Of a DNA stretch of 64,000 bases, positions 6,887 through 59,129 are shown one piece after another; within the stretch, counting starts at the first letter, position 1; every line of letters starts with the position of its first letter. The position numbers and the translations under genes are program-made. The stretch spans positions 192,319 through 256,318 of the forward strand of contig CAKUIF010000001.1 of the NCBI GenBank assembly GCA_934660915.1, written 5' to 3'. The DNA is from an uncultured Olsenella sp. GTDB taxonomy: Bacteria; Actinomycetota; Coriobacteriia; Coriobacteriales; Atopobiaceae. A model generated the notes under the pieces. That model had not been told where the DNA came from and ran no database searches. It saw nothing but the letters and a program-made list of their open reading frames with translations.

Positions 6887-7110
6887 CCTGAGCTCCTTCC
6901 CGTCGTTGAATGGGAGTCAATGATTTTTGACTTGGTCTCAACATAATAAGAGAGCCGAGCTGCCTCGCAGCGCACAAGTACTGCAGTCTGCGTCCGCGGG
7001 TTGTTAGGTACCCTTCGGCGGTATGCCGCACTACTTGCGAACGCACCGTCTTCCATGCGCACTTTAGAATGGATTCATCGGCTGGTCTTAACTCAAGGGA
7101 GGCACCTCGC

Positions 7111-7761
7111 ATGAAGAAGAGCGCATCGTCCCGGATCATCGCACTGACGTTATCGGCGGCCCTGGCCTGCGGATGCCTCCTTACAGCATGCGGCTGCAGC
7201 CGGGAGGCCGAGCAGCCGGATCTGAAGCCGGTCATCTATCTCTACCCGGAAGAAAAAGAGGACATCTCGGTCGAGTTGGACTATGCGGGCGACCTGACCT
7301 GCACATACCCCGAGTACAACGGCAAGTGGAGCGTCACCGCGCAGCCCGACGGAACGCTCACGGACGTTAGCGGCCAGACGTACAACTACCTGTACTGGGA
7401 GGGCGAGAACGACGCCGCGTACGATTTCTCCGAGGGCTTCTGTGTGGCCGGGAGCGACACCGTGGCGTTCCTCGAAAGCGCCCTCGACCAGCTGGGGCTG
7501 ACCCGCAAAGAGGCGAACGAGTTCATCGTTTACTGGCTGCCGCTTATGCAGGACAACCCCTACAACATCATCTCGTTCCAGGCCGACACCTATACGCAGG
7601 CGGCCCAGCTCCGCATCGACCCGGAGCCCGACACCCTGCTGCGCGTGTTCATGGCCTGGAAGGCCTCGGATGCCCCGGTAGACATTCCCGCCCAGGAACT
7701 CACCGCGCCGGAGCGCGCAGGCTTCACGGTAGTCGAGTGGGGCGGCAGCCGCGTCAACTAG
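7111..7761 (+). CDS. Hypothetical lipoprotein
   Basis: MKKSASSRIIALTLSAALACGCLLTACGCS signal peptide and lipobox. GGGAGG RBS. Internal start within ORF 7069..7761. Confidence 0.65.
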   Translation: MKKSASSRIIALTLSAALACGCLLTACGCSREAEQPDLKPVIYLYPEEKEDISVELDYAGDLTCTYPEYNGKWSVTAQPDGTLTDVSGQTYNYLYWEGENDAAYDFSEGFCVAGSDTVAFLESALDQLGLTRKEANEFIVYWLPLMQDNPYNIISFQADTYTQAAQLRIDPEPDTLLRVFMAWKASDAPVDIPAQELTAPERAGFTVVEWGGSRVN

Positions 7762-47927: not shown

Positions 47928-48001
47928 TGGAGGCGAAGCCCGGATTCGAACCGGGGGTGAGGGCTTTGCAGGCCCCTGCCTTACCACTTGGCCACTTCGC
48001 C
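47928..48001 (-). tRNA. tRNA-Cys (GCA)
   Basis: GGCGAAGTGGCCAAGTGGTAAGGCAGGGGCCTGCAAAGCCC...CTTCGCCTCCA. Cloverleaf and anticodon-loop CCTGCAAAG read by hand. CCA encoded. Confidence 0.85.
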
Positions 48002-48040
48002 ATATGAAAGAGGCCGGAGTGACCGGCCTCGGTGCTCACA

Positions 48041-48116
48041 TGGAGCGGGCTACGGGGTTCGAACCCGCGACCTCCACCTTGGCAAGGTGGCGCGCTACCA
48101 ACTGCGCTAAGCCCGC
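48041..48116 (-). tRNA. tRNA-Gly (GCC), copy 1
   Basis: GCGGGCTTAGCGCAGTTGGTAGCGCGCCACCTTGCCAAGGTGGAGGTCGCGGGTTCGAACCCCGTAGCCCGCTCCA. Confidence 0.85.
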
Positions 48117-48269
48117 AAGCGCAAGGGATAATATACGGGAAGCTTCAGCCTTGCGCAAGCCCAAATTTCAAATTCGTTGGAAAAAAATTTGGGGAGCTGA
48201 GCTTCACACGGAACGGAGCACGGCCGATCTGCACGAAATTGCAGCTTGGGGCCTATATCTATCCGCATC

Positions 48270-48478
48270 ACAGTGTTCACGCTTGACGTCGAGCCCACAT
48301 CCCACCCTTCCGCAGTGTCCATGCTTGGAGCAGAGCCCATCTCTCCCCGTCCCGCAGTGTTCCAGAGCACTGCGACGGATACCAATGTGGGCTCCGGGCA
48401 ACTTCTCAACACTATACCGCGGGGAGATGTGGGCTCCAGCAGAGCGGGAAACACTGCGGCTTCGGTAAACCTGGGCTC
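48270..48478. repeat. Degenerate ~28-bp repeat array between the two tRNA-Gly genes: 2 forward units (GAGCCCA..TC.C.CC...CCGCAGTGTT) then 3 inverted units (AACACTGCG...GTGGGCTC)
   Basis: Read directly. Same forward-then-inverted architecture as the 29481-29750 array, but a different sequence. Confidence 0.75.
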
Positions 48479-48526
48479 GCGGCGATCGCCCGCCCTTGGC
48501 AAGAAGCGCGCACACGCCCATGCGCA

Positions 48527-48562
48527 ATTAAAAAAGCGGTCGACCCGAAGGTCGACCGCCTG
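48527..48562 (-). terminator. Rho-independent terminator downstream of tRNA-Gly copy 2
   Basis: Minus strand: GGTCGACC-TTCG-GGTCGACCGC then TTTTTTAATTG. Confidence 0.6.
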
Positions 48563-48569
48563 CAATTCA

Positions 48570-48645
48570 TGGAGCGGGCTACGGGGTTCGAACCCGCGAC
48601 CTCCACCTTGGCAAGGTGGCGCGCTACCAACTGCGCTAAGCCCGC
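48570..48645 (-). tRNA. tRNA-Gly (GCC), copy 2 (identical to copy 1)
   Basis: Identical 76-nt sequence to 48041-48116. Confidence 0.85.
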
Positions 48646-48825: not shown

Positions 48826-50751
48826 TTGAGCACGGGAGCCACTCAAGAGTCTGATCGTACAGCGCTTTTGCTGCGGCAAGCTCCATTGTTGCTCGCCATG
48901 TGCTTTCCCCTTGTGCCTCACCATTACGCATTCGTCGAGTTCTCCGTTCACGTCATGTGCGCGCCTTTGGCCTTCTCTCCGATTGCCGTCGCTTTTGCCT
49001 TTGCGCTTGTATCCAGCCCAAGAGTCCGGCATTCCGGCTTCCTTAGGCTCAGCTCCAAGTTTCTTCTTGCCTCTGCCCTGATTCTCATAGGATGCGACAT
49101 CGCCTATGCTGCCTGGAGGCTCGGCTATGACATCCAGATACCGATAGCATTCCTGCAGCCCATAGACGTCTTTGCTCAATCGTTTCTCTTAACATCGAGC
49201 GCCTTCATGTCCGCATGCAGAGCAATCGAAAACGACCTTCCTCGCGATTCAAACCAGAACACAAATGCCGCGACCTTCGCGTTCGCGCTTGGCGCCCTTC
49301 TTCCCCGAGTGCTCGGCTTGCTCAGTTATGCATTTCAAGGCTCAATTCCCGGGCAAATCGCCGTGTGTCTCGTCTCCGGGGCGACCGGATACTGCCTGCT
49401 CAATAGATTCAATCGATGCGCCAGCAATTCCGACCCCTTAATCACGGCGCCCCGCTCCGCTTTGCTCGGGCTCTTGTTCTCTTCCGCATTCGACGAGCTC
49501 ATGCTGACCGCCCTGTGCAGCGCGCAGGTCAATCTCGACTCTCAAAGCGCCGTCGCGCTCAGAGGCGCTGCGCTCGGCTACGCCATAGCCTTCGCCGCTT
49601 ATATCCTCATCGCTTTGCTTATAAGTCTCATTCTTTGGCTACTCCTGCGCGCTCGGCCGCGGGATGGCGGAGGCGTTTCGAGCGAGACCTCGGCACCAAC
49701 TCATAATCTCGAATCACTCAGCGAGCGCCAACGGCAGGTTTTGACCATGGCCTCCAGTGGCCTGTCCGATGCTGAAATCGCCCAGTCTCTTGGCCTGACG
49801 CCCGGCACCGTAAGCAACCATAAACGTCGAGGCCTCGAACGACTCGGTCTTTCCGGAGTCGCCGATCTCCGCGAGAACGACCGCGCCCAGGACGCGCAGG
49901 CCGTTGCCGAGCTTCCGCCGCGGCGCCCCGTCGCCAAGGTGATCCTCGGGATCGGCATCGCAGCGCTTATCTGCATTGCGCCCTTTATCCCCCTCGCTCC
50001 CGACATCGCATATTGCCTCGCTCTTTTCCTTGGCCTCATTACGTGCCTTGCCTCAATGATCCTGCCTCAATCGCAATCGCGCGGGTTCACGGATCGGCAG
50101 AACAAAGAAGTTCAGGAGCTGCAGTCAAACGTTTGCGCTTTCTCCTTTGTCCTCGGCATAGGGATTGCCCTGTGCTGGTCCTTCTCTAGCACTGTCACCG
50201 CCATTGCGGTCTGCGCATCGCTTTTTCTCATGGTCGGCGGAGGTTTTTCTGGTCGGATCGCGACCAAGGGCACCCCGAGCCCCCATAGCAGCGGCCTCCG
50301 AATCGCGGACGATACGACCCTTTCCACGGCCCTTGCGTTTATGGCGGCGGGGTTGATTCTCGCCGCGCACGCATCTCAGCTTCTCGGCATGCTGCCCGCT
50401 ACAGCGTCACGCTGCCATCTCGTAACCCAACTATGCGTTGCCATCACGGCCGTGAGGCTAACCGGAATTCTGATACGCCTCGGTCGAGTCAACGCCGCCA
50501 GCGAAGCGCCCGTGGACGTCTCGACGCATACAAAGGTCTTCCTTAGATCAAAGGGCGTCGGAGACCTGGAGGCCGAGGTTCTCACGCTCTCGGCACAGGG
50601 CTACACAAGACCTCAGATCTGCGACCTGCTTCACATCGCCGCGGGCACCGTGAACAGCTGTCGAGCCTCCGCCTACAAGAAACTCGGCATCCACAGCAAG
50701 GGCGAGCTCCTCGAATTGCTTGCGGAAACCGCAGATAAAGACTGTCGTTAA
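48826..50751 (+). CDS. Membrane-embedded LuxR-family regulator with two tandem modules (each ~6 TM plus C-terminal LuxR-type HTH)
   Basis: HTH 1 LSERQRQVLTMASSGLSDAEIAQSLGLTPGTVSNHKRRGLERLG (aa ~296-340). HTH 2 LTLSAQGYTRPQICDLLHIAAGTVNSCRASAYKKLGI (aa ~590-628). Hydrophobic segments precede each. Lower GC than the core. Confidence 0.7.
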   Translation: MSTGATQESDRTALLLRQAPLLLAMCFPLVPHHYAFVEFSVHVMCAPLAFSPIAVAFAFALVSSPRVRHSGFLRLSSKFLLASALILIGCDIAYAAWRLGYDIQIPIAFLQPIDVFAQSFLLTSSAFMSACRAIENDLPRDSNQNTNAATFAFALGALLPRVLGLLSYAFQGSIPGQIAVCLVSGATGYCLLNRFNRCASNSDPLITAPRSALLGLLFSSAFDELMLTALCSAQVNLDSQSAVALRGAALGYAIAFAAYILIALLISLILWLLLRARPRDGGGVSSETSAPTHNLESLSERQRQVLTMASSGLSDAEIAQSLGLTPGTVSNHKRRGLERLGLSGVADLRENDRAQDAQAVAELPPRRPVAKVILGIGIAALICIAPFIPLAPDIAYCLALFLGLITCLASMILPQSQSRGFTDRQNKEVQELQSNVCAFSFVLGIGIALCWSFSSTVTAIAVCASLFLMVGGGFSGRIATKGTPSPHSSGLRIADDTTLSTALAFMAAGLILAAHASQLLGMLPATASRCHLVTQLCVAITAVRLTGILIRLGRVNAASEAPVDVSTHTKVFLRSKGVGDLEAEVLTLSAQGYTRPQICDLLHIAAGTVNSCRASAYKKLGIHSKGELLELLAETADKDCR

Positions 50752-50850
50752 AACCGCATATCCCCTCGACACCAAACGTCGCGGCCTCCATAGATAGACT
50801 CCTTCTCGATCGTTTGCGCCCAATTGGAGCCCCGAGAGAACGGAGGCGCG

Positions 50851-51495
50851 ATGCTGGTCGAAATGAGGGATTACACGAAGACGCTCCAGGGCGTCACCGT
50901 GCTGGACAAGGTAAATCTCGCATTGGAAAGCGGGAAGATCTACGGCGTCAAGGGAAAGAACGGCTCGGGCAAAACGATGCTTTTGCGAGCATTGGCCGGC
51001 CTGATCTATCCGACGGCCGGCTCCCTTCTTATCGATGGCAAGCCGCTCGAAAAAGGCCATTTTCCTCCGAGCGTCGGTGTGCTCATCGAGACCCCTTCAT
51101 TTGTGCCGAACAGAACCGGGCTATCGAACCTCCTGGAGATCTCCGAGATCAAGGGCTTGATATCGGACCAAACGGTGGCCCGTGCGCTTCAAGCCGTCGG
51201 CCTCGACCCCAAAGACCGCAGGCCGGTCAGAAAGTACTCGCTGGGAATGCGCCAGCGACTTGGAATAGCCTGTGCGATCATGGAGCGGCCCTCGCTTCTG
51301 CTTCTGGACGAGCCGGTGAACGCCCTCGATCCTGCCGGCGTCGAGATGGCATGCAGGCTCTTTGCCGACGCAAGGCGCCACGACGCGATCGTCGTCATAG
51401 CCTGTCACGACTCGGAGGAGCTCGAGGAGCTCTTCGACGAGCGCATCGACCTTTCAGACGGCAGAATTGTCGGGAGGCGAAGCCCCCATGAATAG
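50851..51495 (+). CDS. ABC transporter ATP-binding protein (ABC-2 / lantibiotic-immunity-like NBD)
   Basis: Walker A GKNGSGKTM, signature YSLGMRQRL, Walker B LLLLDEP. Start could be 50824. Confidence 0.75.
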   Translation: MLVEMRDYTKTLQGVTVLDKVNLALESGKIYGVKGKNGSGKTMLLRALAGLIYPTAGSLLIDGKPLEKGHFPPSVGVLIETPSFVPNRTGLSNLLEISEIKGLISDQTVARALQAVGLDPKDRRPVRKYSLGMRQRLGIACAIMERPSLLLLDEPVNALDPAGVEMACRLFADARRHDAIVVIACHDSEELEELFDERIDLSDGRIVGRRSPHE

Positions 51496-52072
51496 GCGCA
51501 AGAAGAAAACTAGGGCAGTCCTTGCTGCACTTCTTGCGGCCCTGACAGCCTTCCTCTACGTCCACCGTTTCAAAGAAGTGAACGCCGGAATCAATTACTC
51601 AGTCAAGAATGCCCAAGTCGGAGAGCCCGTCCAAGCCAATCTAAGCGGCGCATCCACCGGCTCGCTTTCAACTATTACGGTCGTAAGCGCTCGCGAACTC
51701 ACGCCAGACGAGCTCGCCGAACTCTCGGCCCGGCCTTCCCTCGAAGGCTATCTGGGCAATGACGCCCATATCGTGCTCGTCTTCATCGCCACCGATGATA
51801 ACGAGGCGAGCACGGCGGCGGCAACGACCGGCGTCTATCTCCAATCCGGGGTCACCTCCTGGCAATGCGACCCGATGATCGGCATCGAGCTGGCGGAAGA
51901 TCCGCTGTCCACGATTGAGTCCGACGGAGCCGTCATCACTCTGGCGTATTTGGTCTCTCCCGCCCGATCCGGCGGGCAGGCCTGGGTTGGCCTGAACAAC
52001 AAGGGCTTCTCTTTGGTCACCTCTACGTGGCCTCAACGGGTGTCCGTCGAGCTTGGGAGGATTGAACCGTGA
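51488..52072 (+). CDS. Membrane-anchored protein of unknown function (N-terminal TM, extracytoplasmic domain)
   Basis: MNRRKKKTRAVLAALLAALTAFLYV. 8-nt overlap with the ABC ATPase stop. Confidence 0.5.
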   Translation: MNRRKKKTRAVLAALLAALTAFLYVHRFKEVNAGINYSVKNAQVGEPVQANLSGASTGSLSTITVVSARELTPDELAELSARPSLEGYLGNDAHIVLVFIATDDNEASTAAATTGVYLQSGVTSWQCDPMIGIELAEDPLSTIESDGAVITLAYLVSPARSGGQAWVGLNNKGFSLVTSTWPQRVSVELGRIEP

Positions 52073-52890
52073 TCATTTACGAGCTGAGGCGCGCTTTTAC
52101 CGGATATGGGTTCAGGATTGCCCTTTTTGCCGCGCTCTGCCTTTCGGCGCTACAGATTTGCTTCGTACCGCTGCAGTACTGCATCGGTGATGCATGGGGC
52201 CCATGGAGGTCAGGCGCATACGGCATGCCACCGTCAGTCTGGGCCTCCTGGATAGGCGGCACCCCGCAGTCCGTCTGGTCGGTTCTTTTCTATTACCTCG
52301 TGCCGCTCCTCTGCTGTGCCCCGTTCGCCTCTTCAGCCTGCACAGACCTCAACGGAGGTTTGGCCCCCGTGCTCGCCTCGCGTTCGAGCGCACGCGAGTA
52401 CGTGTTCTCCAAGATGCTGGCAAGCTGCGCCTCCGGGGTGTTCCTTTTTGTGGTCCCCCAGGTCTTAAACCTGCTTGCCACCATGCTGCTCGTGCCCTTG
52501 ATTCCCCCAGACCCCGTTACGTTGCTGTTCCCCATCACCTACCGGGCCGCCGCAGCCGAGCTGTACTATTCCTCTCCCCTGTTCTACACGCTGCTCTTCT
52601 TGGCAGTCGGATCCGCTTTCGTCTGTCTCCTGAACTGTGTTTGCATCGCCTGCTCGAGTCGGTTGCGGTCCCGTCTGCTCATCTCGTTTTTGCCGTTTTT
52701 GGGGTGCATGCTGCTGAATTTCCTCCTAGACACGATTGGCCTAGCCCGCTACTCCCCCGAAAATATCCTGAGCCCTTACCAGCAATACCCGGGAATGAAC
52801 GTCGGCCTTGTGTTCGCGCTTCTCGCTCTTTTGCTTGCCGTGGTTGTGGGGTACGCGGCAATCAAATCGCAAAGGGCTGATGTCTTGTGA
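52069..52890 (+). CDS. ABC-2-type permease-like membrane protein 1
   Basis: GTGA overlap with the previous gene. ~6 TM segments. Confidence 0.6.
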   Translation: MIIYELRRAFTGYGFRIALFAALCLSALQICFVPLQYCIGDAWGPWRSGAYGMPPSVWASWIGGTPQSVWSVLFYYLVPLLCCAPFASSACTDLNGGLAPVLASRSSAREYVFSKMLASCASGVFLFVVPQVLNLLATMLLVPLIPPDPVTLLFPITYRAAAAELYYSSPLFYTLLFLAVGSAFVCLLNCVCIACSSRLRSRLLISFLPFLGCMLLNFLLDTIGLARYSPENILSPYQQYPGMNVGLVFALLALLLAVVVGYAAIKSQRADVL

Positions 52891-53717
52891 GGTCGCATGG
52901 CAAGAGGCGCCGACCTCGGATATCGAGGGCCTTGGCGCTGGCCCGCCACTTTGCGCGGCCCGGGCGCATGGCCTCGCGCGGGTTCATGATCGCGTTCGCC
53001 GTCTTCGACTCTGCGGCAATCGCGCTGTCATCGAATGCGCACGGTTATTCCTCGGCTTCTCCGCTCGATGCTATTTTGCTCCTGTTCTACGGCGAGCCCG
53101 AGCACGCGCCGTCCTCACGCTTTTATTTGACCATCCCCATAACATGGCTCATGGGTCAGGCCCTCTTCTTTGCTTTTATCGCTTGCGCGCTCTTTTGGGC
53201 CACCGGCGGCCGAGGAAAGCAATACCTGCTGCGGGCCGGGTCCTCAAGGACATGGTGGTCCTCCCTATACCTAGCCGTGTTGGCGATGACGCTTGCGCGC
53301 TTCCTCATATCCCTAGCGGTTTGCGCGGCCTTCCCAGCCGTTTCACATTTGCTCAGTATCGAGCCGGGCACAGGCGAGCTCTCCCCTGTTTGCTCATTAG
53401 GATTCTCGGCCCAAGTCGCGCTGCATATGGCCCTCTCGGTCTTGCTGCCGCAAATCCTGCTTGCCCAGCTCTTGGCTTTCTTGTCCCTTTATATGGGAGC
53501 GTTCTGGTCGTTCGCATGCGCCGCGGCGTTTTCCGCCCTCTCGGCGCTCGCGCCGGGCGCCTTGCTCTTTGGTGACTGGAGCATGCTCGCCAGAAACGCG
53601 ATTTGCCGTTCCGGAGGCCTGAGCCCAGTGGTCATCGAAGCGTTTTCCTTTCTTCTTTGCGCGTTGCTCTGGGCAATCGGCGCCCTCAAGGTGACGTCGC
53701 GCGTCGAGCTTATGTAG
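52887..53717 (+). CDS. ABC-2-type permease-like membrane protein 2
   Basis: ATGA overlap with the previous gene. ~6 TM. Start may be internal Met MASRGFMIAF. Confidence 0.55.
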   Translation: MRSHGKRRRPRISRALALARHFARPGRMASRGFMIAFAVFDSAAIALSSNAHGYSSASPLDAILLLFYGEPEHAPSSRFYLTIPITWLMGQALFFAFIACALFWATGGRGKQYLLRAGSSRTWWSSLYLAVLAMTLARFLISLAVCAAFPAVSHLLSIEPGTGELSPVCSLGFSAQVALHMALSVLLPQILLAQLLAFLSLYMGAFWSFACAAAFSALSALAPGALLFGDWSMLARNAICRSGGLSPVVIEAFSFLLCALLWAIGALKVTSRVELM

Positions 53718-53743
53718 GAACCCGTCTCAACCATCGGAGCCGC

Positions 53744-54574
53744 ATGTTGTCTCACGAAAAGAAGCTATTAAGGTCTTGCCGCGCAAACCGAGGCCTGGTG
53801 TTATCCCTGCTGATTATCTCCGCAATCGTCGTTCGGTATAACCAGACGGGATTTGCGCTGTCTCTACCTGCGAGAAGCCGCCCGTCCCCCATTGACTTCC
53901 TGATCTTTGATATGGGGACGGATGGTCAGTTGAGCATCGCCTGGCTCCTTGCCCCGCTTTGTTCGATGGCACTTGTGTCTTTGGCGCTTGGCCCCGAGGC
54001 GCACGAGATGGCGCTTCTTGGCCATGGCTCGCTGCGAAGGCTATGGCTTTCCGAGCTGATCGACGCCATCTTGGCAGCCGCGCATGTATCGGTCGCCGTA
54101 TTTCTCATTTCCTTGTTCTGCGGGTTTGCAGCGGCGGACGCTCACAGCGCCGGAGCCGCCAGCAGCGTCTTCGCAATGATGACGGGGCAGGAAATAAACC
54201 CGAGCGCAAGTCAGGTATTTGTTGCGCTCGCTTGCTTGGCTCACTTGTTGTCGGTGACCTTCTTTGTAACGCTGATATATCTGGGCACAAGAAGAATTAC
54301 CGTGAGCCGGCTGGGCTCATTCGCCTTAACCCTTGTGCTTCTGCTTCCGAGCGTCACGGATGGAAACTCGTTTGTAAGCGACCTTTTGCGGAACCTCCCC
54401 GGCATCGCATTCGTCGAGAACCCCATCCATGCTTTCGTCACGTTCCAGAGCGTCGATTGGCAGCGATGGCTTGGCGGCGAGGCCCCGCATCTTTGGTTTT
54501 TGCCCCTGATGTCCCTGCTGTTAGCCGCAGTCGTGTACGGACTCTCAAATCGGCAAGAAGTGCCTTGGCGGTAA
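53744..54574 (+). CDS. ABC-2-type permease-like membrane protein 3
   Basis: GGAG RBS. ~6 TM. Internal start in ORF 53603..54574. Confidence 0.55.
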   Translation: MLSHEKKLLRSCRANRGLVLSLLIISAIVVRYNQTGFALSLPARSRPSPIDFLIFDMGTDGQLSIAWLLAPLCSMALVSLALGPEAHEMALLGHGSLRRLWLSELIDAILAAAHVSVAVFLISLFCGFAAADAHSAGAASSVFAMMTGQEINPSASQVFVALACLAHLLSVTFFVTLIYLGTRRITVSRLGSFALTLVLLLPSVTDGNSFVSDLLRNLPGIAFVENPIHAFVTFQSVDWQRWLGGEAPHLWFLPLMSLLLAAVVYGLSNRQEVPWR

Positions 54575-54625: not shown

Positions 54626-55423
54626 CTAGCCCGCCAAAGACGAGAGCCGCTCCGCGCCCGCAGGCTGTGCCGAGTACATCTTCACCAGCCGGACGACGGT
54701 GCCGGAACCCGAGGTCTTGGGGCCGATGGTCACCGAGTCGGCCAAAAGCCGCATGAGCTTGATCCCGCGCCCGCGCTCGGCGAACGAGTCTTCTCCGGCA
54801 TCGGCGGCAGCCCCACCCTCGCCGGCGCAACCGCAGCCGCCCGGCAAGAAGCCCTCGCCGCAGTCTGCCACGTCGACCACGACGCGGTCCGCGTACGCCG
54901 CGACCGTAACCAGCACTCCATCGGCGCAGGTGTGGTCCACGGCGTTGCCCACGGCCTCGCCCGACGCGAGGTTCATGTCAAAGAGGTCGCCGTCGGAGAG
55001 TGGCAGCTCGGCGATCATGCGCTGCAGGCGATTGCGTGCGCAGTCGAGCTTGTCTTTATCCACCCGAAACGTCGTTCGCCACTCGGGCAGGGTGTTCGCG
55101 GGGAGCTCCGGCACCTCAGTAGAGTCGCCCGCGCGCGTGACAGGCACGAGGTCCGCCATCCGCATGACGACGAGCGCCCGGTACACTCTGTCGGCCACGT
55201 TGGTGAGGGAAATGAGCCCGCCCACTTGGCGCATGCGGCGCATCTCGCGCAGGATCATCCCGAAGCCGGCCGAGTCGGCGTAGGAGGCGTTGGCCATGTT
55301 GAGCACGACGCGGCGGCAACCGGAGTCGATGAGCTCGTCGACGAGCTCGCGCACCTTGGGCGCCGACCTCACGTCGAGGTCGCCGTCCACGCTCACCTGC
55401 GCTATGTTCGTCTTCGTCGTCAT
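54626..55423 (-). CDS. Fused anti-sigma-factor antagonist (STAS, RsbV/SpoIIAA-like) plus anti-sigma-factor serine kinase (HATPase_c, RsbW/SpoIIAB-like)
   Basis: N-terminal STAS domain with a conserved Ser context (LNMANASYADSAGFGMI). C-terminal GHKL region (GEAVGNAVDHT...DCGEGF...GRGIKLM). Confidence 0.68.
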   Translation of the reverse strand: MTTKTNIAQVSVDGDLDVRSAPKVRELVDELIDSGCRRVVLNMANASYADSAGFGMILREMRRMRQVGGLISLTNVADRVYRALVVMRMADLVPVTRAGDSTEVPELPANTLPEWRTTFRVDKDKLDCARNRLQRMIAELPLSDGDLFDMNLASGEAVGNAVDHTCADGVLVTVAAYADRVVVDVADCGEGFLPGGCGCAGEGGAAADAGEDSFAERGRGIKLMRLLADSVTIGPKTSGSGTVVRLVKMYSAQPAGAERLSSLAG

Positions 55424-55488
55424 ATCCAGAGCATGCCCAGCAAGAAACCCCGCTAAACACGCAGTTTGCCCAGGGGGCACAAATTGGC

Positions 55489-57732
55489 CTACCCGAGCGC
55501 GTCGAAGCGCAGCGACACCATGGCCACGTCGTCCTCGAGCTTGTGTCCTGTGAACTCCTCGACGGTGCCCAACAAACGGCTCAGGAAGCCCTCATACGGC
55601 TTTTGGGGGTCGCTCTCGCGCATAACCATGTCGCGCAGCCCCTGCTCGCCGAAAAATGCCCCCGCAGGATCACGGGCCTCGGTCGTGCCGTCGGTGTACA
55701 GCAAAAGCACGTCGCCCTCGCCGATGTCGATCGAGCCGTCGCGGTAGGCGATGTCGTGGAAGGCGCCTACGACGCCCGACTGCACGTCCAGAAGCGTCAT
55801 CTCCTGGCCGCCCGCGCGCACGAGCAGCGCCGGCGGGTGCCCCGCGGAGCAGTACGTGATGGTCGATGCTGCGAGGTCGATGATACCCACAAACAGCGTG
55901 GCAAAGGTCTCGACGCGCGAGAACCCCAGGAGGAACTCGTTTAAGCTCCGCACCATGCGCGCCGGCGCGAGGCCTTCCCAGGCGTAGGCTCCGAGCGCCG
56001 TCTTTACCGCGGCGGAGACCGAGGCGGCCTCGACGCCCTTGCCCGAGACGTCGCCCATGATCACGCAGGCGCGGCGATCGGGCAGGCAGATCAAGTCGTA
56101 GAAGTCGCCGCCCACGAAGGCGGACGCAGTGGCCGACGAGTAAACGCCCTGGGCGTCGATGCCCTCCACGTGCTGGAGCTCGTTTTTCATCCCCGACTGG
56201 AGGGCCTGCGAGATGCGCCGGTTCTCGTAGCGGGTCTTCTCGCCCTCTAGGACGTCGCGCAGGCACGAGGCCAAACGCGCGAGGAAGGCGAGGTCCACCT
56301 CGTCGAACGGCTCGGCGCCGTCCGGGCGAAGCATGAGGCAGGCACGCCGCGCGCCCACCGCCTCGCCGCCGTCGACCAACACCGCCTCGCACGGCTCGCC
56401 GAGCTCGCGCAGGCGCTCGCGCACCTCGTCTCCGGGCATGAGCGGCACGACGGACACGCCGTCGATCGCATGCCCCTCGCACAGCTCGTCGATGTCGCAG
56501 TCGAACTCCTGGCGCCCCGTGAGGGGAAGCGTCGCCGCGAGCTTTCCCGGCTCGACCTCCACGTCGACGAAGGCCGCATCCAGCTCGCTGGCAGCCTCGC
56601 GCATCATCTGAAGGATTGCCTCGAGCGGCTTGTCGGAGTCCCCCAGACCAAGGGCCTTCTCGCGCAGCTCCGTGAGGATCTCGTCGAGGCGCGCCGAGCG
56701 CTGCGAGCGCATGGTCGCGAAGGCGCCGACGAGCTGGACCGCCAGGTAGTGAGCAACGGAGTCGAGCAGGCGCGCGTCCTCTTTGTCGACCGGGTACTGG
56801 CGTTTCCAGCCCACCTCGATGATCGAGATGACCTCACCGTCGAACCACACCGGCACGGCGATGAAGCTGGTAAAGGGCGGCAGGAGCTTTGACTGGATCT
56901 TTATGACCTCGCGCGTGTCCTCGTTGACCACCTCGCGCGAGGCCAGGCGCCCCGCGCGCAGGGAGTCGCCCGTCGGCGGCGCCACGCGCAGGCGCACCGC
57001 CTTTCCGGCGCGCGTCGCGAGCGTCTCGACCGTGCGCCCGAAGTGCATGAAGCGCGGAACCCGGGCCGCGTCGATATCGCCCGCCAGGCCGCGCAGGTGG
57101 AAGCCGTCGGCGCCTGCGAGGTAAACGACCGTGCCGTCCGCGTCGAGCGTCTGGTAGAGCTGCTCGAGCACGCGCGAGAAGAGCTCGCCCACGTCCGGCG
57201 CGTCAAGCGTGTCGAGGACGATGTTGAAGGCGCCCGAGAGGCGCTTGTTCGCGCGCTTGAGGTCGTCGACCGTTCGGTCGTGCTCTCGGGCGTCGGCGAG
57301 CCCCTCGTCGGTCGCGTGGGCCACGAGCAGATACGTCTCGCCGGGCGCCACCACCGACTCGCAGCGGATCGTCACGGCGCGAAGGGCGCCGTCGAGGCCG
57401 CGGCACATGGCGGGCACCGAGGAGCCGTCGAGCGCGAAGGGCAAATCCTCCACCGAGGACGCGATGCCCGGCGCCGTCGACGCGTCGGCGTCGTCGAGGT
57501 CGGGAAAGAGGCCCTGCACGTAGAGCCCCGCCACGTCGACGCCGTCGGCGGCCAGAAGCTCGGACGCCTCCCCGTTGGCAAGAAGCACCCTGCCCGTCCC
57601 GTCAAAGACGAGCACGCAGTCGCTCGTGAGCTGCAAAAGGCGCGAGAAGGTGCCCGCGAGGCTCCCCTCCCCGATTCCTTCCATATGACGCCTCGAGAGC
57701 GCCGTCTTGGACCTCGCCATGCGCGCGGCCAA
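55489..57732 (-). CDS. PAS/GAF-domain-containing PP2C-family serine phosphatase (RsbU/SpoIIE-like)
   Basis: C-terminal PP2C motifs (GGDFYD, GDVSGKG, LLLYTDG) and N-terminal sensory domains. 747 aa. Confidence 0.75.
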   Translation of the reverse strand: MAARMARSKTALSRRHMEGIGEGSLAGTFSRLLQLTSDCVLVFDGTGRVLLANGEASELLAADGVDVAGLYVQGLFPDLDDADASTAPGIASSVEDLPFALDGSSVPAMCRGLDGALRAVTIRCESVVAPGETYLLVAHATDEGLADAREHDRTVDDLKRANKRLSGAFNIVLDTLDAPDVGELFSRVLEQLYQTLDADGTVVYLAGADGFHLRGLAGDIDAARVPRFMHFGRTVETLATRAGKAVRLRVAPPTGDSLRAGRLASREVVNEDTREVIKIQSKLLPPFTSFIAVPVWFDGEVISIIEVGWKRQYPVDKEDARLLDSVAHYLAVQLVGAFATMRSQRSARLDEILTELREKALGLGDSDKPLEAILQMMREAASELDAAFVDVEVEPGKLAATLPLTGRQEFDCDIDELCEGHAIDGVSVVPLMPGDEVRERLRELGEPCEAVLVDGGEAVGARRACLMLRPDGAEPFDEVDLAFLARLASCLRDVLEGEKTRYENRRISQALQSGMKNELQHVEGIDAQGVYSSATASAFVGGDFYDLICLPDRRACVIMGDVSGKGVEAASVSAAVKTALGAYAWEGLAPARMVRSLNEFLLGFSRVETFATLFVGIIDLAASTITYCSAGHPPALLVRAGGQEMTLLDVQSGVVGAFHDIAYRDGSIDIGEGDVLLLYTDGTTEARDPAGAFFGEQGLRDMVMRESDPQKPYEGFLSRLLGTVEEFTGHKLEDDVAMVSLRFDALG

Positions 57733-57759
57733 CCTTTCGTCCGGGGCCGCGCGAAGGTG

Positions 57760-58182
57760 CTAGCCGACCTCGTAGAGGTCCTTGGCCTCCAAAAACGCAA
57801 GGCCGCTATCGCGCAGCTTGATCTCCAGCGGCTCGCCGGTGGCCTTGATCACGTCCACCGTGCGGTCGCCCATGGAGCAAGTGTAGGCGTATTCGACGTT
57901 GAGGTCACACGACGCGAGGCGGTCGAGAAGGTGCCCCAACGCGCCGGGGACGTTTTCCACCTCGGCGGCGACCACGCGGGCACACATGGCGTTGTAGCCG
58001 CGCTCACGCAGCATCTGGGCGGTCGCGCGAGGCTTGTCGCAGATCACGCGGATTATGCCGAAATCAACCGTCTCGGCGACCATGAGGGCGTGGATCTGAA
58101 TGCTCTTCTCGCCGAGCAGGTGGCACATGGCGGCGAGCTTTCCAGGGCCGTCGGGCAAGCACACGGTGAGCTGATCGATCAT
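57760..58182 (-). CDS. ACT-domain protein (small-ligand-binding regulatory domain)
   Basis: 140 aa from internal Met MIDQLTVCLPDGPGKLAAMCHLLGEK. Two ACT-like halves. Confidence 0.6.
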   Translation of the reverse strand: MIDQLTVCLPDGPGKLAAMCHLLGEKSIQIHALMVAETVDFGIIRVICDKPRATAQMLRERGYNAMCARVVAAEVENVPGALGHLLDRLASCDLNVEYAYTCSMGDRTVDVIKATGEPLEIKLRDSGLAFLEAKDLYEVG

Positions 58183-58336
58183 GAGGAGGCTCCCTTCGTC
58201 TGGACTTTTCCCCATCCTAGGGCGTCGGCAAGAAGGGCTAAAGATTGCGAAACGCGCGGGTTTCGACTTTGTTCGCTTCCAGACACACGGTGCGATTTCT
58301 TGTAACAAGAAGGACCGTGGTAATGAGCATCTATAC

Positions 58337-58368
58337 CAAAAGAGGGTCTCCGAAGAGACCCTCTTGAA
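58337..58368 (-). terminator. Rho-independent terminator downstream of tRNA-Leu
   Basis: Minus strand: AAGAGGGTCTCTTCGGAGACCCTCTT then TTGG, with a T-rich tail. Confidence 0.55.
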
Positions 58369-58372
58369 TTTC

Positions 58373-58461
58373 TGGTGTCGGAGGCGGGACTTGAACCCGC
58401 ATGACCTTTAACAGTCACTAGCACCTCAAGCTAGCGCGTCTGCCAATTCCGCCACTCCGAC
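58373..58461 (-). tRNA. tRNA-Leu (GAG), long variable arm
   Basis: GTCGGAGTGGCGGAATTGGCAGACGCGCTAGCTTGAGGTGCTAG...GGTTCAAGTCCCGCCTCCGACACCA. Folded by hand. Confidence 0.8.
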
Positions 58462-58556: not shown

Positions 58557-59129
58557 CTAACCCAGGAGCATCTCGTAGATCTCGTCCTCAGCTCCGTCGG
58601 CGAATCCCCAGTTACCGTCAGCGTCCTTCTCAACGGAAAGGGTGAACTCGACGTCGCGCATCTCGGCGTTGTCCGTGATGTCCATGAAGAGCTGACCGCC
58701 CATCTTGAGCAGATCGTCCTCCGTCACGTTCGTGGGATCGACCTCGGAGAGCTTCGCCTGGAACTGATCCGCGAAATCGGTCACGATCCGCTCCAGCGAC
58801 TTGCAGGACGCCTTCATCTGAACCGTGCCGGTGCCCTCCTTCTCGTCGACTTCAATCTCCCCCACCTCATAGTCGAAGCCGGCAAAGTAGCTCTTGAGGT
58901 AGTCCTTCATGTCGATGCCGAGCTCGGTGAAGGCAGAAGCCTCCTCATCGTCCATCTCGGAGGTCATCTCGTCGATGAGCGAGTCGTCGAGGTTCTTGAT
59001 CTTGTCGAACTCCGCCGTCACGCCCTCGCGGATAACGTCCTCGGCCTTCGGCCCGCCGCAACCGGCGAGCACGAGCACCGCCGCAGCCAAAACCGCCATC
59101 AACCCGAACACAAAGCCCTTCTTTTTCAT
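58557..59129 (-). CDS. Acidic lipoprotein of unknown function
   Basis: MKKKGFVFGLMAVLAAAVLVLAGCGG lipobox. 190 aa, Asp/Glu-rich. Confidence 0.65.
   Translation of the reverse strand: MKKKGFVFGLMAVLAAAVLVLAGCGGPKAEDVIREGVTAEFDKIKNLDDSLIDEMTSEMDDEEASAFTELGIDMKDYLKSYFAGFDYEVGEIEVDEKEGTGTVQMKASCKSLERIVTDFADQFQAKLSEVDPTNVTEDDLLKMGGQLFMDITDNAEMRDVEFTLSVEKDADGNWGFADGAEDEIYEMLLG

Follow-up and report, generated by a model that had tools for sequence, protein, structure and literature searches.

The window analysed in this study is a 64,000-nt stretch of DNA from an uncultured Olsenella sp. (contig CAKUIF010000001.1, positions 192,319 to 256,318), and all positions below are counted within it. On its minus strand, on which the whole unit 54626-58461 is read, two adjacent genes encode a sensor-linked PP2C phosphatase of 743 aa (55489..57720) and a 265-aa protein in which a STAS (anti-sigma-factor-antagonist) domain is fused to an RsbW-like kinase domain (54626..55423). 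Judged from sequence, these genes probably form a two-gene partner-switching module whose switch resides in a single polypeptide, that is, a self-contained phospho-switch with its target encoded elsewhere in the genome. The module is a PP2C-coupled, predicted phospho-competent relative of the SipA-type fusion of Actinoplanes missouriensis, and it is fixed across the Coriobacteriales. Partner switching is the textbook form of on/off control of bacterial stress and developmental programmes. To our knowledge, nearly all that is understood of it stems from systems in which antagonist, kinase and sigma factor are separate; in Bacillus, the antagonist and the kinase are separate proteins encoded in one operon with the cognate sigma factor.

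The preliminary description of this locus had read 54626-55423 as an RsbV-like antagonist and an RsbW-like GHKL kinase joined in one chain, and curated profiles bear this out. In the 284-aa open reading frame (ORF) 54626..55480 (-), which begins at an in-frame alternative start (GTG 55480), Pfam STAS (PF01740) matches residues 18-114 (E = 4.9e-15; 55.6 bits versus a cut-off of 22.6) and HATPase_c_2 (PF13581) matches residues 140-267 (E = 7.6e-16; 58.7 versus 27.4 bits), and the cut-off of NCBIfam TIGR00377, 'anti-sigma factor antagonist', is passed (72.6 versus 53.45 bits). Residues are numbered here from ATG 55423, which matches the Met where most homologues begin in the alignment. The STAS domain, placed by phmmer and Foldseek at residues 1-97 (55133..55423), has phmmer matches to RsbV (6M36, E = 8.8e-10) and SpoIIAA (1TH8, E = 1.1e-08); it forms the N-terminal part of a 265-aa two-domain protein and is not a stand-alone antagonist of about 110 aa. 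By length count, a linker of 18 residues between positions 97 and 115 (55082..55132) separates it from an RsbW/SpoIIAB-type GHKL (Bergerat-fold) Ser-kinase/anti-sigma domain at residues 115-250 (54674..55081), which was assigned from HATPase_c_2, its motifs and Foldseek. The names given to such proteins in public databases, 'anti-sigma factor antagonist' or 'serine/threonine-protein kinase RsbW', each cover half of the protein.

The predicted phospho-acceptor is Ser51 (codon 55271..55273) in the motif Y-A-D-S-A-G-F. It lies in the conserved D-S-x-G position at the start of helix 2, as in antagonists, and is aligned with the first Ser of SpoIIAA 'DSSG' (the one substituted by Ala in 1TID) and with the Ser of RsbV 'DSTG'. 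In the kinase half we recognized the N box (E156-N160-H164), the G1 box (D187-x-G189-x-G191), the G2 box (G218-x-G220) and R130 on helix 1, with an ATP lid at 196-213 that is modelled at low confidence. A BLASTP alignment places A129-R130 opposite A19-R20 of SpoIIAB. R20 of SpoIIAB touches both SpoIIAA and sigma-F.

A search among 5.8 billion proteins gave 404 relatives of the fusion protein, of which the best 120 were examined for architecture. Both domains occur in the same order in 119 of these 120, with lengths of 243-285 aa. Across the 119 close homologues, Ser51, D50, R130, E156, N160 and H164 are invariant, and D187 and the glycines of the G1 and G2 boxes are kept in 118-119. A profile search reached further (27,514 matches at E <= 0.001); among its top 150 cluster representatives at 50% identity, 77 have the STAS-then-kinase order and five the reverse order. 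The equivalent of Ser51 is Ser in 67 of these 77 distant fused homologues, in which most kinase-motif residues are likewise retained. The linker measures 18 residues in 148 of 210 fused homologues, with L107 and P113 invariant. An AlphaFold2 model of the fusion protein is compact (pLDDT, the predicted score in the local distance difference test, 82.4; predicted template modelling score, pTM, 0.69), with a linker pLDDT of ~80, and is less confident only at the ATP lid and the C-terminal tail. In Foldseek comparisons, the template modelling (TM) score relative to the target is 0.76-0.85 for the STAS half against SpoIIAA and RsbV, and 0.66-0.74 for the kinase half against SpoIIAB, RsbW and UsfX. 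We therefore regard the fusion as genuine, with both catalytic halves under selection.

That the protein is an ordinary sensor histidine kinase, or that a frameshift or an assembly error has merged separate rsbV and rsbW genes, is almost certainly wrong. The generic HATPase_c match that speaks for such a reading is weak (Pfam, E = 3.4e-06). Pfam finds no HisKA/DHp domain, the 114 residues before the ATPase being taken up by the STAS domain and the 18-residue linker, and the N-terminal half scores as STAS above curated thresholds. In addition, 119 of 120 close homologues, drawn from many independent assemblies, repeat the single chain and its fixed linker length. The partner-switch interpretation had been made to hang on a phosphorylatable Ser/Thr and on unlikeness to histidine kinases; Ser51 is present and invariant, and the DHp domain of histidine kinases is absent. 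A coupled redox switch between Cys36 (55316-55318, just before STAS strand 3; kept in 108 of 119 close homologues) and Cys188 (54860-54862, inside the G1 box D-C-G-x-G; kept in 112 of 119) was also considered and set aside, because the two residues are lost independently within the close family; their association across all sequences tracks relatedness.

The gene upstream had been described as an RsbU-type PP2C phosphatase with N-terminal sensors, and this too is upheld. Its start is more likely ATG 57720 than TTG 57732, which is possible (ORF 55489..57732), and 383 full-length homologues were found, under the NCBI name 'GAF domain-containing SpoIIE family protein phosphatase'. The Pfam match to SpoIIE/PP2C (PF07228) is strong (E = 5.6e-47; 160.6 versus 25 bits) and that to GAF is above threshold (E = 2.5e-11); PAS is sub-threshold (20.8 versus 23.1 bits), yet a PAS-like fold is predicted. 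The PP2C/PPM catalytic domain, placed at residues 521-739 (55504..56160) by invariant columns and by similarity to 3KE6, has its metal-binding Asp residues, D539, D557 (G-D-V-S-G-K-G), D677 (T-D-G) and D730-D731, invariant in 18 sequences. Among solved sequences, the PP2C domain of Rv1364c comes closest (3KE6, E = 1.8e-18; Foldseek root-mean-square deviation, rmsd, 3.2 Å, 28% identity), with RssB and SpoIIE also near. For the sensor region (56329..57660; AlphaFold2 secondary structure, Pfam and Foldseek), the AlphaFold2 model of the phosphatase, with a pLDDT of 74 and a pTM of only 0.39, predicts a PAS-like domain (21-136), a helix, a GAF domain (177-305), a long helix (313-361) and a GAF/PHY-like middle domain (365-464) without a Pfam match; a further long helix (474-509) is predicted to join the sensor array to the PP2C domain. 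In RsbU-type phosphatases, a dimeric long helical linker from sensor to PPM domain has been proposed as a general activation device (PMC12143880), and the present phosphatase, in its predicted helices, shares this layout of sensors, long helix and PPM domain. A phytochrome-like photosensor was rejected: PAS-GAF-PHY structures are the top Foldseek matches (E ~1e-13), yet the TM scores of 0.25-0.4, the identities of 12-16% and the model pTM of 0.39 are low, and the resemblance of the modelled array is read as one of domain order alone.

The pairing of the two genes is widespread. In a contig scan using one genome per species, at least 529 candidate stretches encode relatives of the fusion protein; the best 80 of these at least 529 were examined, and all are of Coriobacteriales type, ranging from Atopobiaceae (44-99% identity) to Collinsella (39-40%). 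The source of the window is closely related to O. uli: its fusion protein shares 99% identity with the one in a Coriobacteriia metagenome-assembled genome and 93% with the O. uli DSM 7084 protein. From Olsenella to Collinsella, 85 of 90 loci have a homologous sensor-PP2C gene as the immediate upstream neighbour on the same strand, mostly at a distance of 46-280 nt (1061 nt in one case; 65 nt in the window). Three distant metagenomic lineages also have a sensor-PP2C gene, of PAS-PAS-SpoIIE or HAMP-GAF-GAF-SpoIIE type, immediately upstream of the fusion gene. An Armatimonadota contig (L090) has no PP2C gene beside the fusion gene, and no upstream PP2C match was found in L044, L046, L008 and L034, which are exceptions, or else short or mis-binned contigs; the upstream genes of L046 encode a MoxR-type AAA ATPase and a VWA protein. 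Three further bins that carry the locus are labelled Bacteroidaceae, Acutalibacteraceae and Prevotella sp. CAG:279 (L024, L035 and L052); their neighbouring genes are of Atopobiaceae type (opp genes at 82-90% identity, tRNA-Leu), and these contigs are probably mis-binned.

The surroundings of the pair are conserved as well. In 57 of 63 loci the PP2C gene is preceded, at less than 1.5 kb, by a tRNA-Leu(GAG) gene; downstream, on the same strand and again at less than 1.5 kb, 51 of 54 loci have a tRNA-Gly(GCC)/tRNA-Cys(GCA) cluster; the copies in the window were found at 58373..58461 (-), by ARAGORN, and within 47928-48645, respectively. The same tRNA-flanked position from Olsenella to Collinsella indicates an old locus, and we therefore take the module to have been inherited vertically for a long time as part of the Coriobacteriales chromosome, neither mobile nor recently acquired. 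The preliminary description had implied that such a fusion is rare. This does not hold, given that the domain order is known from SipA (PMC10733313), that a fusion is known in Rv1364c (PMC7693655), and that the order occurs in 77 of the 150 cluster representatives. By the present data, the STAS-then-RsbW chain, called unique to a few sporangium-forming actinomycetes in 2023, is common.

Based on these features, a mechanism can be proposed. The ATP-bound kinase domain would phosphorylate Ser51 of its own STAS domain, within the same chain or in trans across a dimer; the intramolecular phosphorylation put forward in the preliminary description is a reasonable inference. The phosphorylated STAS domain would then let go and expose the binding face of the kinase domain to a partner; sigma factors and STAS-tagged proteins whose genes lie elsewhere in the genome are the most probable candidates. 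Once the PAS/GAF sensors register a ligand or a metabolic cue, the helical linker would activate the PP2C domain and Ser51 would be dephosphorylated, upon which the tethered STAS domain, at very high local concentration, would re-dock on the kinase domain and the partner would be released. Because the fusion sets antagonist and kinase at 1:1, the output would depend only on the balance of phosphatase and kinase. The partner could be a sigma factor from elsewhere in the genome, a STAS-tagged protein like the one that SipA binds, or a target that is not a sigma factor.

Several points weigh against this mechanism. That Ser51 is phosphorylated, that the PP2C reverses this and that a partner is bound are all deductions from sequence. 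The kinase domain scores far below the RsbW equivalogs (NF003144, 31.9 versus 145 bits; TIGR01924, 23.1 versus 155 bits) and the SpoIIAB equivalog (TIGR01925, 25.6 versus 135 bits), and anti-sigma function therefore cannot be transferred by homology; the SpoIIAA equivalog cut-off of NCBIfam is likewise missed widely by the fusion protein. In addition, tblastn searches with B. subtilis SigB and SigF, E. coli RpoD regions 2-4 and RpoE found no sigma-70-family gene in the 64-kb window (best E = 0.058, the ORF beneath this match being a MerR regulator), nor within 10 kb in 85 Coriobacteriales loci; ECF-type sigma factors might escape these queries. No sigma gene with a STAS domain adjoins the module in the window, nor is one found within 10 kb in the Coriobacteriales loci. 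As a positive control, rpoD of the Armatimonadota locus L090 was recovered by all four queries. The earlier remark that no sigma factor lies nearby is thus confirmed and extended. Finally, the authors of the SipA study model its two domains as constantly associated, with the target held on the opposite face, and not as a competitive switch (PMC10733313).

The lack of a sigma gene near the module in any Coriobacteriales locus and the low equivalog scores of the kinase domain would also suit an arrangement in which the STAS domain is itself the output. Dephosphorylated STAS would bind a non-sigma effector (an enzyme, transporter or regulator), as SypA, HsbA and the Anabaena STAS protein do, the fused kinase would be a dedicated off-switch, and the PP2C would turn the output on. 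Partner-switching-like modules with non-sigma targets are documented: SypA/SypE is one (PMC10120452), and an Anabaena phosphatase/STAS pair controls a glycosyltransferase (PMC13555669). However, R130, the counterpart of SpoIIAB R20, is invariant, so that the partner-binding helix is kept, which is equally expected for STAS docking alone, and in both characterised fused relatives, SipA and Rv1364c, contact with the sigma factor is reported to run through the kinase-like domain. We consider a STAS output unlikely on balance, while giving it real weight.

SipA (AMIS_54230) of A. missouriensis is the sole experimentally studied STAS-then-kinase protein that we found in the literature, where we found nothing on Rsb-type proteins in Coriobacteriia. 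It is the anti-sigma factor of sigma-SsdA, 243 aa long, with STAS at 6-103 and an RsbW-like domain at 158-239; the RsbW-like domain binds its own STAS, and SipA inhibits sigma-SsdA (PMC10733313). Its authors (Tezuka et al. 2023) wrote that a domain structure of this kind had not been described before, and they found orthologues only in Micromonosporaceae and one Nonomuraea (PMC10733313). We compared SipA through its published description and residues 33-65 of the authors' model file, SLLKCLAEQPEALLIDLARLHVEQPLALAVFTT. The two proteins are alike in having an N-terminal STAS domain followed by a C-terminal RsbW-like HATPase in a single chain of ~245-265 aa. They differ in surroundings: the sipA gene lies beside ssdA, the gene of its target, a sigma factor of SigB/F/G type that has STAS at its C-terminus, whereas no such gene is found near the module described here.

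The likeness in domain order and size allows for a phosphorylation-free mode of action like that of SipA, in which the two domains stay associated and the other face of the RsbW-like domain holds a STAS-bearing protein, e.g. a sigma factor with a C-terminal STAS domain, while the PP2C acts on that protein or on an unrelated one. In the authors' AlphaFold-Multimer model, SipA's RsbW-like domain does bind its own STAS and that of sigma-SsdA on opposite faces (PMC10733313). However, SipA has no phosphatase partner, phosphorylation lay outside that study, and Q56/P57 appear where D50-S51 would be expected in an alignment made by eye on the beta-3 strand, the fragment being beyond the reach of BLASTP. 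In the present family, Ser51 and the ATP-binding motifs are invariant, the PP2C gene is a near-universal neighbour, and no STAS-bearing sigma gene adjoins the module. A SipA-like mode of action is therefore decidedly unlikely. In the Coriobacteriales the chain is a conserved chromosomal fixture that is wired unlike SipA, with the acceptor Ser retained and a sensor phosphatase as near-obligate partner.

Another known system is Rv1364c of M. tuberculosis (PAS - PP2C - RsbW-like kinase - STAS), which is reported to autophosphorylate and autodephosphorylate the STAS domain that it carries and to bind SigF (PMC7693655, PMC12143880). It has the same three activities, with antagonist and kinase in a single chain, and provides the closest solved relative of the PP2C domain, to which specific similarity is confined. 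It differs in that the phosphatase is fused too and the kinase precedes STAS, whereas here the phosphatase is a separate gene product and STAS precedes the kinase; moreover, the sensor region (PAS-like, GAF and GAF-like) is larger here. By analogy, the autophosphorylation and autodephosphorylation of Rv1364c and the binding of SipA to its own STAS lend support to the proposed switch logic. With the RsbU/RsbP-RsbV-RsbW-SigB and SpoIIE-SpoIIAA-SpoIIAB-SigF switches of Bacillus, the module shares the domain families, the Ser of D-S-x-G, the N, G1 and G2 boxes and a sensor-linked PPM phosphatase, and it differs from them in the fusion of antagonist and kinase and in having no sigma gene nearby.

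The best whole-chain Foldseek match of the fusion model is LvrC of Leptospira interrogans (9QIH; E = 4.3e-09), described as a receiver-domain-regulated anti-sigma factor (PMC13269768). In both proteins an RsbW-like Bergerat-fold domain is preceded, in one chain, by a phospho-acceptor domain at the N-terminus. However, the receiver domain of LvrC is phosphorylated on Asp by a histidine kinase, whereas the Ser of the STAS domain here is the predicted target of the protein's own kinase, and the domain arrangement differs (Foldseek rmsd ~21 Å, TM 0.35-0.40). RsbW3 of M. smegmatis was dismissed as a STAS-kinase fusion, because it is an RsbW homologue of 194 aa whose N-terminal extension measures 30 residues. 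The pair offers a compact two-protein system for asking how fusion of antagonist and kinase alters the input-output behaviour of a partner switch, and it bears on what such switches control in organisms without an obvious cognate sigma factor; the Coriobacteriales include Collinsella and Olsenella, frequent inhabitants of the human gut and mouth. Known parts suffice to predict the mechanism, and no long-standing question is opened by it.

On the minus strand, the tRNA-Leu(GAG) gene is followed by a hairpin with a UUCG loop, the gene of an ACT-domain pair, the phosphatase gene and the fusion gene. The ACT gene (57760..58182 (-), 140 aa; Pfam ACT_8, E = 6e-17; E = 1.8e-13 to PDB 2F06, 'conserved hypothetical protein') is the first gene of a probable operon. 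The preliminary description had correctly named the ACT gene and a tRNA as neighbours and had gone on to suggest the ACT protein as a possible output of the switch. Its gene is read in the same direction as the PP2C gene and ends 39 nt upstream of the latter's start; no convincing terminator separates the two. It holds its place between tRNA-Leu and the PP2C gene in 19 of the 63 assessable loci, all of them Atopobiaceae (44-92% identity). However, the other 44 loci, which include every Collinsella locus, lack it and all keep the PP2C-fusion pair; ACT domains are small-molecule-binding modules, and nothing connects them to GHKL or STAS binding. Since only 19 of 63 loci have the gene, the ACT protein is at most accessory, and a role as partner or output of the switch is highly improbable. 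A Paratractidigestivibacter locus without a full ACT gene (L010) has, upstream of the PP2C gene, an ACT-like remnant of 27 residues (7053-7133; 67% identity, E = 5e-06), which points to loss of the ACT gene in this locus and not to its gain in others.

The hairpin at 58338..58365 (-) has a 10-bp stem (fold energy -21.1 kcal/mol, z -3.8) and a U run. It comes immediately after tRNA-Leu, resembles an intrinsic terminator and would mark the upstream edge of the ACT-PP2C-fusion unit. The same UUCG hairpin and U run follow tRNA-Leu in Collinsella aerofaciens (L083, 7300-7580), where the ATG of the PP2C gene (7575) lies only ~25 nt past the U run, a gap that offers no obvious space for a separate promoter. 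Expression of the module may come about by read-through from the tRNA-Leu promoter. A similar A/T-rich stretch with a CTTGCA/CTTGCG motif precedes both tRNA-Leu and the downstream tRNA-Gly. A bolder view, which we hold to be quite unlikely, is that the pair is an order-wide core regulator of growth or nutrient response whose target is not an alternative sigma factor, possibly expressed by such read-through; its target could be the housekeeping sigma factor or a non-sigma protein. If tRNA-Leu read-through were true, the dose of the switch would track tRNA demand, i.e. growth rate.

Sigma genes were seen at some distance from the fusion gene outside the Coriobacteriales. In two related metagenomic contigs (L088/L089, 1-8800), the HAMP-GAF-GAF-SpoIIE and fusion pair lies ~4-7 kb downstream of rpoN (sigma-54), which is accompanied by a pair of a PAS histidine kinase and an NtrC-type regulator, and in the Armatimonadota contig (L090, 8001-13483) the fusion gene lies ~3.5 kb upstream of dnaG-rpoD; either proximity could be by chance. 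Four metagenomic proteins (P0144, P0171, P0190 and P0229) show other fusions of the same parts, namely a cation-efflux transporter with a C-terminal STAS and HATPase_c_2, three STAS domains followed by HATPase_c_2, a 1438-aa chain of HATPase_c_2 - HAMP - SpoIIE - HTH (helix-turn-helix) - three STAS domains, and a fragment in which the end of a SpoIIE domain runs into STAS.

ORFs overlapping the unit on the plus strand (e.g. 54699..55283 and 57043..58305) are of the type expected from high G+C and are not needed to account for any observation. Between the fusion gene and the tRNA-Gly/Cys cluster, a convergent plus-strand block of ~5.7 kb (48826..54574) is lower in G+C (0.58-0.60) than the module (0.66-0.70). 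Its genes encode a multi-pass LuxR-type protein of 641 aa, which has two GerE helix-turn-helix regions, and an ABC ATPase; a further four ORFs lack a Pfam match, and membrane proteins are among the products. The block is also present in O. uli (L007), whereas elsewhere the tRNA-Gly/Cys genes mostly follow less than 1.5 kb downstream, and it looks like an insertion beside tRNA genes. On the other side, between the opp ABC operon and tRNA-Leu, 58557-59129 (-) encodes a predicted lipoprotein of 190 aa, very acidic and without a Pfam match, with a signal peptide ending in Cys.

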